Assembly: GCF_016918855.1 (NCBI RefSeq)
Contig: NZ_JADKYB010000007.1
Location: forward strand, 373,623 to 405,622
DNA from: Actinacidiphila acididurans
GTDB lineage: Bacteria; Actinomycetota; Actinomycetes; Streptomycetales; Streptomycetaceae
Reading direction: 5' to 3'
Length of the DNA: 32,000 bases
This document shows, one piece after another, positions 11,638-27,700 of this stretch. Within the stretch, counting starts at the first letter, position 1. Each line of letters starts with the position of its first letter. Position numbers and translations under genes: made by a program. Under the pieces are notes generated by a model. The model had not been told where the DNA came from, ran no database searches, and was given only the letters and a program-made list of their open reading frames with translations.

Positions 11638-12628
11638 CCTGTGGGGGGCTGGCTTGTGGCGGTTGAGTTGCCGGGGCCGGTGGTGTCGTTCCTGAGCGTC
11701 GTCGGGATCAGCTGGCCGAACGTCAACGAGGACAAGGTGCGGGAGTTCGCCTCGCACATCCGGGAGTTCGCCTCGGCGGTGGACACCACCCACCAGCAGG
11801 CCACGGCCACCGTCAAGGAGCTGGGGGCTCACTACAAGGGGGCCTCCTACGAGGCGCTGCTGGCCGCGTGGGGTGAGAAGTCCTCCACGCACATGGCCGA
11901 GTTGGTCAGCCTGTGCCACGGGGTGGCCACCGCGCTGGACGTGGCCGCGGGCGTGATCGTGACGATGAAGGGCGAGTGCATCGCCGAACTCATCGGCCTG
12001 GCAACCGCGTTCGTGGCGGAGCAGGCGGCGGCGGTGGAGACGCTGGGGTTGTCGGAGGCGGCGGCAGCGGCGACGGTGAAGCTGGCCGAGAAGGCCGTGC
12101 AGGTCCTGGAGGACCAGCTCACCCAGTACATCATCGCCGAGGTCATCGAAGCGGCCCTGGACCCCCTGGTCGAAGCCGTCGGCAAGGCGGCGAGCGGGCT
12201 GATGTTCAAGGCCACCGAGGACGCCCTCGGCGTGGACACCGACGGATGGGACGGCGGCCCCGGCTTCGAGATCCACCCGTCCATGCTGACCTTCCACGCC
12301 ACCACGATGCACGGCCACGCCGAGACCGTCACCGGCCACGCCACAACCCTGCAGACCAAGCTCGCCGGGGTGAACTTCCAGTGACCAACCGCATCGTCGC
12401 AGCCCTGGAACACGCCGCGACCAGGCTCGGCAAGACCCTGGGCGAGGACGCCGGCAAGGCGGTCGGGGATCTGTACCACTCCACCGGCCACAACCTGACC
12501 GGCATCGCCGAGGACACCACCGCAGCCGACCTCAAGCACGAAACAGCCCTGCGGGGCCTCATGCACGACACCAAACAGCCCTCCGTCCACGCACCCCACG
12601 ACGTCAGCGACACCGGGCACCTCCCCCA
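11638..12628. repeat. Left arm of an inverted repeat of about 1 kb (helper gene plus the first ~80 codons of Rhs)
   Basis: It matches the reverse complement of 26711-27700. The encoded helper proteins differ at under 10 of about 242 residues. The Rhs N-termini are identical apart from a few substitutions up to HAPHDVSD.GHLPH. Confidence 0.85.
11656..12384 (+). CDS. ESX/T7SS-substrate-like helical protein (WXG100-like / CpnT-N-terminal-like domain), a putative Rhs helper
   Basis: The motif ELPGPVVSFLSVVGISWPNVNEDKVREFA resembles the actinobacterial WP..(D/N)ED..(L/V)R N-terminal toxin domain. The rest is an Ala-rich helical region. The preferred start is the GTG at 11656, after a G-run, where homology to copy 2 begins. 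The stop overlaps the Rhs start as GTGA. Confidence 0.7.
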   Translation: MAVELPGPVVSFLSVVGISWPNVNEDKVREFASHIREFASAVDTTHQQATATVKELGAHYKGASYEALLAAWGEKSSTHMAELVSLCHGVATALDVAAGVIVTMKGECIAELIGLATAFVAEQAAAVETLGLSEAAAAATVKLAEKAVQVLEDQLTQYIIAEVIEAALDPLVEAVGKAASGLMFKATEDALGVDTDGWDGGPGFEIHPSMLTFHATTMHGHAETVTGHATTLQTKLAGVNFQ

Positions 12629-15600
12629 TCAGCAAGGCGACGAGCCGCCGCTGGGCGGTGAACACGCCCCCGGGCAGCCCTCGGAGGGCAACGGCGGCTG
12701 CACCACAGGCGGCGACCCCGTCGACGTCGTCTCCGGCCAGATGATCACCTCCGCCACCGACATCGACCTGCCCGGCCTGCTGCCCGTGGTGCTGCGCCGC
12801 GCCTACGCCTCCGGCTACACCGGCGGACGCTGGTTCGGCCCAGGGTGGGCCTCAACCCTCGACCAGCGCATCCAGATCGATCCCGACGGCATCCACTACG
12901 CCGGCGAGGACGCCGAAATCCAGCACTACCCCCTGCCCACCGACCAGCAACCAAGCGTTCTGCCCATACGCGGCCCGCAACGCCCCCTGATCTGGGACCG
13001 GGACACCGACACCATCCGCATCGAGGACACCGCCACCGGTGTCACCCGCCACTTCGCCACCCCACCTGCACCTGGGGCACAGACTCGTACGATCACCGCG
13101 CTGACCGACCGCAACGGCCACCGCATCGACTACCTCACCGGGCCCGACGGCCTGCCGACAGAAATCCGCCACACCGGCGGCTACCGCGTAGCCGTCGACA
13201 CCACCCGCACCCTCACCGGGCCCCGCATCAGCGGCCTGCGCCTGATCCACGACGGCACGAGCACGCGGATTCTCCAATACAGCTACGACGGCCGTGGCCG
13301 CCTGACCGCTCTCACCGATTCCACCGGCCTGCCACTGACGTACGCCTACGACGACCACGACCGGATCACCTCCTGGACCGACCGCAACAACCACTGGTAC
13401 GCCTACGAATACGGCTCCGACGGCCGCGTCACCCGAGGCCACGGCCCCCAAGGCGCCCTCCAAGCCCACTTCGCATACGACACCGAGGCCCGCGTCACCA
13501 CCATCACCGACAGCCTGGGCGCCCGCACCGAATACCACTACGACCGCCACGGCCACCTCACCACGGTCGTCGACCCCCTCGGCGGCACCGTCCACACCGA
13601 ACACGACCCGTACGGCCAGCTCCTGTCACGCACTGACTAGCTCGGCCGCACCACCCGCCTGGCCAGGAACTCCCAAGGGGACGTCACCGGTGTGGAACGG
13701 CCCGACGGCACCGTGGTGCGGATCGCGTACGACGCACGGCGCCTGCCCGCCGAGGTCGTCGCGCCCGACGGCGCGACCTGGCGTCAGGCGTTCGACGCGA
13801 GGGGCAACCGCACCGAGGTCACTGACGCCGCCGGGGCCACGACCCGCTTCGCTTACGACGACGACGGTCGTGCGACCTCGGTGACGAATCCCGCCGGTCA
13901 CACGACCCTGGTGCGATGTGACGAGGCCGGGTTGCCGGTTGAGGTCATCGACCCGCTCGGGGCGGCCACACGCTATCGCCGTGACGCCTTCGGCCGGATC
14001 ATCGACGTCACCGATCCCCTGGGCAATACAACCGGCTACAAGTGGTCGGTCGAGGGACGACCGCTGTCGCGTACCGAACCCGACGGCGCCAGGCACGCCT
14101 GGGACTACGACGCGGAAGGCAACACGACCCGGCACACCGACCCCTCGGGCGCGGTCACCGCCCTGACGTACACGCACTTCGGCCTGGCCACGGATCGAAC
14201 CGACCCCGACGGCGCCCGCTACACCTTCGTGTACGACACGGAGCTGCGCCTGGTTCAGGTGACCCAGCCGCAGGGCCTGACCTGGAACTACCGCCACGAC
14301 GCAGCCGGGCGGGTGATCGGCGAAACCGACTTCGACGGCCGGTCGCTCACGTATACCTACGACGCCGCTGGGCGGTTGACCACCCGTACCAACGGCCTCG
14401 GCCAGACGATCGCCTACCACTTGGACGCGCTGGGCCGCGTCGTCAGGAAGGACGCGAACGGCGCCGTCACCCAATACGCCTACGACCGTGCCGGGCGTCT
14501 TCTGAGCGCGCGCGACGGCATCACCGAGCTGATCCGCGGCTACGACCCCGTAGGCCGCCTGCTGTCCGAGAGCGTCGACGGACGCACCCTCGACCTCGCC
14601 TACGACGGTCTCGGCAGGCTTACCCGTCGCCGCACCCCTTCCGGAAGCGAGAGCCGGTGGACGTACGACCCGGCCGGCAACCCGACGTCGCTGGACGCGG
14701 ACGGGCACCGCGTCGACTTCGACCACGACGCCGCCGGACAGGAGACCCTCCGCCGCCTCGGCTCCGAACTGCGCCTTGCCTTCGTCTGGGACGCCTCCTA
14801 CCGCCTCACCGACCAGACCCTGTCCAGCACGGCCGCCACGGCCATCGGCCCGGCCCCCGAACACCTGCTGCACCGCTCCTACGCCTTCCGGGCCGACGGC
14901 AACCTGACGTCCTTCAGCGGCCAGACGGCCGGGCAGTCCGCCGAGGCCGTCCACTACGACCTCGATCCTGCCGGCCGGGTCACTGCCGTCCGAGGAGGCA
15001 CCTGGACCGAACAGTACGTCTACGACCGCGCGGGCCACCCCGTAGCGGCCGACCTCACGACTCCCCAGTCCCAGGCCGGACACGGTCCCCGTGCCTACGA
15101 CGGCGCCCGGCTGCGCACCGCCGGCCGCCTCCATTACAGCTACGACGCCCAGGGCCGGGTCACCGCCCGTCGCAGTACGACCCTGTCCGGCCGGCCCTCC
15201 ACCTGGACGTACTCCTGGGACGTCGAGGACCGTCTCACCGACGTCACGACCCCCGACGGGCAGCACTGGCACTACCGCTACGACCCCCTCGGCCGCCGTA
15301 TCGGCAAGCAGCACGTCGTGCAGGAAACCGACGATGCCCAGGGCCTGAGCGCCTGGGAACGGACGCACTACACCTGGCACGGCCCCACCCTGGTCGAACA
15401 AACCGCCCAGGGCCCCCACCTGCCCGGCCCCTACACCCTCACCTGGGACTACCGCGGCCTGCATCCCATCGCCCAGCGTGAACAACTGGCCTCCAACGCC
15501 AGCCAGGACGAAATCGACCGCAGATTCTTCGCCGTCGTCACCGACCTCATCGGCACCCCAACACACCTCTACGCCCCCGACGGCACCCTCGCCTGGCAGC

Positions 15601-26958: not shown

Positions 26959-27700
26959 TGGAAGTTCACCCCGGCGAGCTTGGTCTGCAGGGTTGTGGCG
27001 TGGCCGGTGACGGTCTCGGCGTGGCCGTGCATGGTGGTGGCGTGGAAGGTCAGCATGGACGGGTGGATCTCGAAGCCGGGGCCGACGTCCCATCCGTCGG
27101 TGTCCACGCCGAGGGCGTCCTCGGTGGCCTTGAACATCAGCCCGCCCGCCGCCTTGCCGACGGCTTCGACCAGGGGGTCCAGGGCGGCTTCGATGACCTC
27201 GGCGATGATGTACTGGGTGAGCTGGTCCTCCAGGACCTGCACGGCCTTCTCGGCCAGCTTCACCGTCGCCGCTGCCGCCGCCTCGGACAACCCCAGCGTC
27301 TCCACCGCCGCGGCCTGCTCCGCCACGAACGCGGTTGCCAGGCCGATGAGTTCGGCGATGCACTGGCCCTTCATCGTCACGATGACGCCCGCGGCCACGT
27401 CCAGGGCGGTGGCCACCCCGTGGCACAGCGACACCAGTTCGGTCATGTGCGTGGTGGACTTCTCGCCCCACGCGGCCAGCAGCGCCTCGTAGGAGGCTCC
27501 CTTGTAGTGCGCCCCCAACTGCGTGACGGTGGCCGTGGCCTGCTGGTGGGTGGTGTCCACCGCCGAGGCGAACTCCCGGAGGTGCGAGGCGAACTCCCGC
27601 ACCTTGTCCTCGTTGACGTTCGGCCAGCTGATCCCGACGACGCTCAGGAACGACACCACCGGCCCCGGCAACTCGATCGCCACAAGCCCCCCAGGCGTAT
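26711..27700. repeat. Right arm of the inverted repeat of about 1 kb
   Basis: It is the reverse complement of 11638-12628, with scattered substitutions. Confidence 0.85.
26955..27683 (-). CDS. ESX/T7SS-substrate-like helical protein, second copy (putative Rhs2 helper)
   Basis: It is near-identical to 11656-12384. The preferred start is the GTG at 27683, where homology begins. The longest ORF starts at 27731. Confidence 0.7.
   Translation of the reverse strand: MAIELPGPVVSFLSVVGISWPNVNEDKVREFASHLREFASAVDTTHQQATATVTQLGAHYKGASYEALLAAWGEKSTTHMTELVSLCHGVATALDVAAGVIVTMKGQCIAELIGLATAFVAEQAAAVETLGLSEAAAAATVKLAEKAVQVLEDQLTQYIIAEVIEAALDPLVEAVGKAAGGLMFKATEDALGVDTDGWDVGPGFEIHPSMLTFHATTMHGHAETVTGHATTLQTKLAGVNFQ

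Follow-up and report, generated by a model that had tools for sequence, protein, structure and literature searches.

A near-identical 1-kb helper and N-terminal module, inverted between two Rhs toxin operons of Actinacidiphila acididurans, is probably a product of island build-up and module-confined recombination and not a toxin switch

The 32-kb stretch of the Actinacidiphila acididurans genome analysed here (contig NZ_JADKYB010000007.1, positions 373,623 to 405,622; hereafter the window) carries two convergent Rhs operons, Rhs1 on the plus strand and Rhs2 on the minus strand, whose 5' ends form a long and nearly identical inverted repeat. Taken as a whole, the locus has the features typical of Rhs polymorphic toxins, an orphan module included, and a repeat of this kind is nothing unusual at polymorphic toxin loci. 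We favor the explanation that the two arms are copies of a discrete ~1-kb delivery module belonging to a toxin family of the Streptomycetaceae, and that their inverted layout is a by-product of island build-up and not a switch, an explanation to which we would assign a probability of roughly 0.7. A first-pass annotation of the same DNA had interpreted the arms as the borders of an invertible toxin-switching segment and had further proposed that recombination was confined to the module; the second part of that interpretation is supported, whereas the first is not.

A repeat search of the window returned a single long inverted pair, 991 nucleotides (nt) in length and 96% complementary, with the left arm at 11651-12641 (plus strand), the right arm at 26698-27688 (minus strand) and 14,056 nt between them. 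Aligned in an ungapped register the arms differ at 44 of their 991 positions (95.6% identity), which excludes a chance origin of the repeat, and the longest mismatch-free runs are 112, 98 and 93 nt. The first-pass annotation was therefore right about a ~1-kb near-identical inverted repeat around ~14 kb and about an identity in the mid-90s, although its coordinates (11638-12628 and 26711-27700) place the same feature ~13 nt too far outward; it was also right on the geometry, in that a crossover between the arms would flip the 14 kb together with the partial tRNA copy and the integrase remnant described below. The outer edge of the repeat is abrupt: over the 50 nt that precede it identity is 28-36%, and it rises to 96% at position 11651, 5 nt upstream of the GTG start codon of a helper gene (11656 in the left arm, 27683 in the right). 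The inner edge frays across 12612-12641, or approximately Rhs codons 78-87, and further in the two sequences are ~32% identical, the level expected at random.

As first proposed from the open reading frames (ORFs), and as borne out by the frames themselves and by Pfam matches, each arm codes for a helper and for the 5' end of an Rhs gene, namely a WXG100-like protein of 242 amino acids (aa) and the first ~84 Rhs codons, the Rhs GTG start overlapping the helper TGA stop in both. Helper1 (11656-12384, plus strand; 100% identical to WP_205357878; PF25547 at 1.1e-9 and PF06013 at 1.8e-9) and helper2 (26955-27683, minus strand; 100% identical to WP_205357891) both score above the gathering cut-offs of these two families, reaching 37-38 bits for PF06013 (cut-off 27.3) and 39-42 bits for PF25547 (cut-off 27). 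Rhs proteins have been genetically linked to type VII secretion systems of both the a and the b kind (T7SSa and T7SSb), and predicted substrates of these systems are often encoded together with small WXG100-related partners (PMC11217815). Judging from sequence and gene order, we infer that the module is the export-targeting part of these toxins and would have to fit the type VII-like route of its host.

Module and body are discordant. Between the two arms the helpers are 96% identical in protein and the N-terminal 85 aa of the Rhs proteins 94%, versus 48% for the Rhs bodies that follow. Synonymous divergence (dS) of the helpers is 0.083 between the arms as opposed to 0.29-0.30 to the copy in Streptomyces sp. 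HPF1205, the closest other genome; for the bodies we relied on protein identities, since the stop codon in Rhs1 disturbed codon mapping and made synonymous and nonsynonymous (dN) estimates for pairs with Rhs1 unreliable. The Rhs1 body is moreover nearer to the Rhs protein of HPF1205 (63% protein identity) than it is to Rhs2. Near-identical modules at the head of anciently diverged bodies argue for repeated recombination or gene conversion at the module edges. At the single-nucleotide polymorphisms (SNPs) between the arms, the HPF1205 locus (L002) and a metagenomic copy (L001) match now one arm and now the other in a mosaic: in the block 11901-11910 the left arm agrees with L002 and the right arm with L001, and across 12306-12470 this is reversed. 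Such sharing patterns point to patchy conversion and not to one reciprocal exchange. Together with the helper dS values and the 48% identity of the bodies, these mosaic SNPs uphold the earlier suggestion that recombination or gene conversion has been confined to the module.

Two more specific histories were considered and rejected. A single past crossover within the arms was suggested by a left helper and a right N-terminus that are each the more L002-like, but the L002-like body sits on the left copy, and L001 displays the opposite sharing at many of the same sites. The second concerns a third helper copy (WP_307795304), which lies on another A. acididurans contig (403,925 bp), is at least 94% identical to both window copies and is frameshifted at its C-terminus. 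It was evaluated as a mosaic of left and right sequences; a simple tree of the form (left, (right, third)) explains its residues, and it adds no evidence of recombination.

The same sharp edges were found in related genomes. In Streptomyces sp. CT34, where three loci lie at 2.9, 5.3 and 7.0 Mb of one scaffold, the module of locus L022 is 89-91% identical in nucleotides to those of the other two and the bodies are 66-68% identical, and in Kitasatospora mediocidica two loci on separate contigs (L029 and L051) possess modules of 87% and bodies of 68% nucleotide identity. For 3 of the 4 paralog pairs compared, homology sets in 0-13 nt upstream of the helper start codon and is lost 975-1006 nt further on; the remaining pair (L016 and L018 of CT34) is less sharply bounded, with homology that starts 41 nt upstream and runs on into the body. 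Because such edges recur in paralogs separated by megabases or located on separate contigs, the boundary is a property of the family and not of the pair in our window. Across genera the helpers are only ~60% identical in protein. In many genomes, furthermore, the same helper family precedes a protein of ~275-300 aa that is not an Rhs protein (loci L005, L007-L010, L014, L015, L019, L021, L026, L042 and others), indicating that the module serves more than one toxin architecture.

Among the related loci, L002 of HPF1205 is the closest, and it displays neither flanking synteny with the window nor mobile-element genes; a search of viral contigs with the helper returned no relatives. The closest environmental helper-Rhs operon is that of the metagenomic locus (L001, 7861-10729). 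It lies ~500 nt past a 548-aa phage-type integrase that ends a prophage-like block (RecT, YqaJ, RusA and WhiB), and no tRNA was detected there. In Streptomyces longisporus three contigs stop or are broken within a helper gene (those of loci L050, L052 and L055), and a stretch of 386 nt is 99% identical between L050 and L052, which suggests that near-identical repeats of the module broke that assembly.

Past the module, both Rhs proteins follow the same order: the N-terminal part, a variable Pro/Gly-rich linker, a DUF6531 domain, RHS repeats, the RHS-associated core (TIGR03696, at 4e-22 in both) and a tip of ~145 aa. Rhs2 (23086-26958, minus strand) has an uninterrupted frame of 1290 aa, with 14 stretches of RHS repeats (PF05593, 2.9e-87) and a 143-aa tip of no assigned type. 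Rhs1 (12381-16283, plus strand) has the same Pfam and NCBIfam domains and a 148-aa tip, likewise of no assigned type, and is broken by a single in-frame TAG at 13638-13640 (codon 420), 1 kb beyond the left arm, so that its PF05593 matches fall as 4 and 12 stretches in the two halves. Since the closest homologue, that of HPF1205, has a Gln at this position, a single CAG-to-TAG change explains the stop, and Rhs1 is either a very recent pseudogene or affected by a sequencing error. The two tips are unrelated to one another, as are the two candidate immunity genes, which were assigned by position. Candidate immunity gene 1 (16280-16819, plus strand) has an ATG that overlaps the Rhs1 stop (ATGA), and candidate immunity gene 2 (22323-23078, minus strand) begins 8 nt past the Rhs2 stop with a GAGG before its ATG. 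Neither the tips nor the candidate immunity proteins had a sequence match in Pfam, NCBIfam or the PDB.

The inverted layout can be traced to a tRNA gene. An intact tRNA-Ser with anticodon TGA (11270-11357, plus strand; ARAGORN, Rfam tRNA 54.8 bits) forms the left boundary of the island region. A repeat search revealed that its 3' part, which begins at the anticodon stem and extends 6 nt beyond the end of the tRNA (11301-11363, plus strand), recurs as a direct, attachment-site (att)-like repeat at 18711-18773 (plus strand), within the would-be invertible segment. The repeat is exact over 57 nt (11307-11363 and 18717-18773) and extends over ~63 nt in total with a 1-nt indel in the anticodon loop, and its 26-nt core occurs twice in the window versus 0 times expected. 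The related species A. paucisporea (locus L056) is syntenic with window positions 3-11408, tRNA-Ser included, and then continues directly with the equivalent of window positions 18709-19254 (L056 11839-12382, 75% identity), integrase remnant included; 11364-18710 is missing. In the same species a short att-like copy is seen ~3.2 kb downstream (L056 15088-15133).

The tRNA-Ser, the direct repeat and the absence from A. paucisporea together identify 11364-18710 as a discrete insertion at a tRNA attachment site. This 7.35-kb segment, which we call element A, contains helper1, Rhs1, candidate immunity gene 1, a DUF4291 gene and gene X, and it is because of this insertion that the left arm lies within 14 kb of the right arm and on the opposite strand. 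Profile scans detected no integrase in 11364-18710; the only integrase sequence lies right of the partial tRNA copy, where just the C-terminal catalytic part of a tyrosine integrase (183 aa) remains (18920-19471, minus strand; phrog_1 integrase, 4.3e-9). As A. paucisporea has this remnant beside its tRNA-Ser as well (L056 12039-12638, 75% nucleotide identity), the decayed island to which it belongs would be older than the Rhs1 cassette. By analogy, the left segment is reminiscent of cis-mobilizable cassettes that lack an integrase and sit at tRNA genes.

From these observations we propose the following course of events. The module, comprising a WXG100-like partner and the first ~84 toxin residues, heads polymorphic toxins that are ~1290-aa Rhs proteins here and toxins of ~275 aa elsewhere. 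Within a genome its copies stay nearly identical, with the Rhs shell, tip and immunity gene past the variable linker being anciently diverged, and homologous recombination or gene conversion at the module edges has repeatedly attached different toxin bodies to the module native to the genome. Presumably homogenization is favored because all copies must fit one type VII-like export route. At the present locus a 7.35-kb cassette without integrase inserted at the tRNA-Ser attachment site, and it probably landed beside an older island in which the integrase remnant, an orphan HNH tip and, on the other strand, the helper2-Rhs2 operon were already present.

Several observations weigh against this explanation. 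Some helper paralogs within one genome are only 59-80% identical in protein (in HPF1205, NPDC001351 and NPDC001604), and homogenization is thus not universal. Conservation of the module is in part plain purifying selection, given a dN/dS of ~0.25 within the arms and a module dS of 0.2-0.5 in CT34 and K. mediocidica. The AlphaFold2 model of the helper is all-helical, helices 25-56 and 63-126 forming a hairpin, but its confidence is only moderate (predicted local distance difference test score of 66.6) and its Foldseek matches are generic, non-specific helical bundles. Core genes of the type VII machinery (EccC/EssC-type) are absent from the 32-kb window. Finally, the order of arrival of the two islands is only probable, and a search of the window did not reveal where the older island ends on the right; no third att copy was detected there at up to 3 mismatches, nor after the degraded gene X copy described below.

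The principal alternative is a recombination-driven switch, in which recurrent RecA-mediated inversion would put the Rhs1 and Rhs2 sets behind different promoters, such that orientation sets the expressed toxin. In length and similarity the arms suffice for homologous recombination (identical runs reach 112 nt), their upstream regions are unrelated and could thus differ in promoter strength, the tips and candidate immunity genes of the two sets differ, and the module has a clear recombination history. There is also a precedent in the S-layer (sap) genes of Campylobacter fetus, where RecA-dependent inversion takes place between conserved 5' regions, several hundred bp long, of oppositely oriented paralogs. 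The window shares with sap these long inverted 5' homologies of paralogous genes. However, sap genes diverge from a single promoter inside the invertible segment, and orientation decides expression, whereas here the genes converge, the upstream regions lie outside the segment, and two complete operons are present in both orientations.

Several findings speak against such a switch, which we regard as unlikely. The layout is not conserved: when 55 related loci were checked for a second helper up to 10 kb away on either side, none had one, making the paired convergent arrangement unique to this window, where it stems from the island insertion. The tRNA-derived repeats, one outside and one inside the segment, are still direct, and hence there has been no net inversion since insertion. 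Each arm carries a complete helper and Rhs 5' end behind its own unrelated upstream region, so that the exchange is symmetric: with near-identical arm products, inversion would swap only two near-identical 5' ends and the unrelated sequences upstream of them, leaving two complete operons and activating no silent cassette. Rhs1 is broken by a stop that lies outside the arm and travels with the body, and inversion therefore cannot repair it. Frequent exchange would also homogenize the arms, against which their 4.4% divergence speaks. A scan of ORFs found no intact recombinase gene in or next to the segment, the 183-aa integrase remnant being the only candidate, and a promoter and terminator scan gave nothing above the shuffled background and so no evidence either way. 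With its layout explained by island insertion, its arms symmetric and no intact recombinase gene at hand, the toxin-switching segment of the first-pass annotation is not borne out. A rare RecA-mediated inversion of the 14 kb is physically possible, and nothing indicates that it occurs or is used.

A variant of the same idea is that the module doubles as a recombination handle, and that occasional RecA-dependent inversion moves the intact Rhs2 and broken Rhs1 sets between strong and weak upstream regions. We consider this quite improbable as well. If true, it would provide heritable, reversible variation in toxin output without a dedicated recombinase, and would be a convergent-gene counterpart of C. 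fetus sap in an actinomycete toxin locus.

One might instead suppose that there has been no recombination and that the arms are old paralogs whose similarity comes from strong purifying selection on the helper and N-terminal domain alone. The dN/dS of the arms is in keeping with this, and in CT34 and K. mediocidica selection does explain part of the protein conservation, as judged by the module dS values given above. Selection on the protein does not readily account for an arm dS that is far below that of the saturated bodies and 3.5 times lower than the value for the HPF1205 copy, for similarity that switches on within a few nt, 5 nt before the start codon, or for an Rhs1 body that has closer relatives in other genomes than Rhs2 does. 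The contrast in dS has already largely refuted this account, and we judge it very unlikely. Least credible of all is an assembly artefact, that is, an inverted layout due to a mis-join across the repeated module: the genome is a draft, with the window on a contig of 405,982 bp and a third module copy on another contig, and the S. longisporus contigs do break inside helper genes, but 44 differing sites and no identical run above 112 nt allow ordinary reads to resolve the arms, and the att repeats, the A. paucisporea synteny and the intact frames across both inner junctions all agree with the assembled order.

Having weighed these alternatives, we retain the explanation of a shared delivery module brought into inverted layout by island build-up, and describe here the other genes between and beside the arms. 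Element A continues past candidate immunity gene 1 with the DUF4291 gene (16844-17557, minus strand; Pfam, 4.3e-72), whose family has recently been predicted to be ADP-ribosyltransferase-like (PMC12522546), and with gene X (17788-18492, plus strand), which codes for a hypothetical protein of 234 aa. Homologues of gene X are widespread in actinomycetes, and their contexts are regions rich in mobile elements, among insertion sequence (IS) elements and integrases. A degraded, frameshifted copy of gene X that is 83-85% identical (X'; 19770-20430, plus strand) was revealed by the repeat search, and lies 1.9 kb to the right of gene X on the same strand. Further to the right is an orphan Rhs 3' fragment (21155-22146, minus strand; Pfam and tblastn), in which ~800 nt of core, detected by tblastn with Rhs2, are spread over three frames and are followed by an intact Tox-HNH-EHHH nuclease tip; its last ORF (21155-21781) joins the end of the RHS core to this tip. 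A gene at 20713-21177 (minus strand) is, by position only, the candidate immunity gene for the orphan tip, and has no family match. Two genes just beyond the right arm (28399-30138), one for a DUF6959 protein and the other for a protein of 411 aa whose C-terminal domain is a Barstar (barnase-inhibitor) domain, may also be immunity genes, with no toxin in sight.

The locus can be compared with several known systems. Rhs loci of Salmonella Typhimurium contain orphan toxin/immunity modules and are remodelled by homologous recombination (Koskiniemi et al. 2014, PMC3967940). Similar to these, the window has a main rhs gene with its candidate immunity gene and an orphan fragment that consists of a core 3' end, a different tip and its own candidate immunity gene (here 21155-22146 and the gene next to it), and conserved rhs sequence is the substrate for recombination that changes the attached toxin. 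In Salmonella, however, direct repeats at the core/tip junction serve for deletion or amplification that activates a silent orphan, whereas here the near-identical sequence is an inverted 5' module of helper and N-terminus shared by two complete operons; core-level repeats in the window are only 72-73% identical. The operons also resemble those of T7SS substrates with WXG100-related or Lap-type partners, such as the LXG toxins (PMC11217815, PMC10327511), in that a WXG100-family gene lies directly upstream and is translationally coupled to a toxin gene, and in that this toxin has a short conserved N-terminal region, a variable toxic C-terminus and a downstream immunity gene, which in our case is a candidate. 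They differ in the size of the helper (242 aa versus ~100 aa for the known partners) and in that T7SS core genes are not in the window, export being putative for this actinomycete family.

Integrative elements are known to build up in tandem at tRNA genes, and these include integrase-less cis-mobilizable elements (CIMEs). The left part of the window agrees with CIME accretion: the tRNA gene is intact, its 3' part recurs as a direct repeat, the segment between the two is missing from a related species, and an older element with a decayed integrase adjoins it. It departs from the typical CIME comparison in that the cargo is a complete operon of helper, Rhs and candidate immunity gene and that no third att copy to close the older island could be located in the window, and its mobility is putative.

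These findings leave current concepts unchanged and add a caution, namely that a long inverted repeat between paralogous toxin genes need not be a switch. They illustrate that a small att-flanked cassette that sits at a tRNA gene and lacks an integrase of its own can carry a complete operon of helper, Rhs and candidate immunity gene. For the Streptomycetaceae they describe a sharply bounded 1-kb unit that is near-identical among many within-genome paralogs while Rhs shells, tips and immunity genes are exchanged, and this adds to the classical core/tip junction a second site of recombination that lies far upstream of it. In doing so they offer a testable idea of how foreign toxins may get fitted to the export route of their host.

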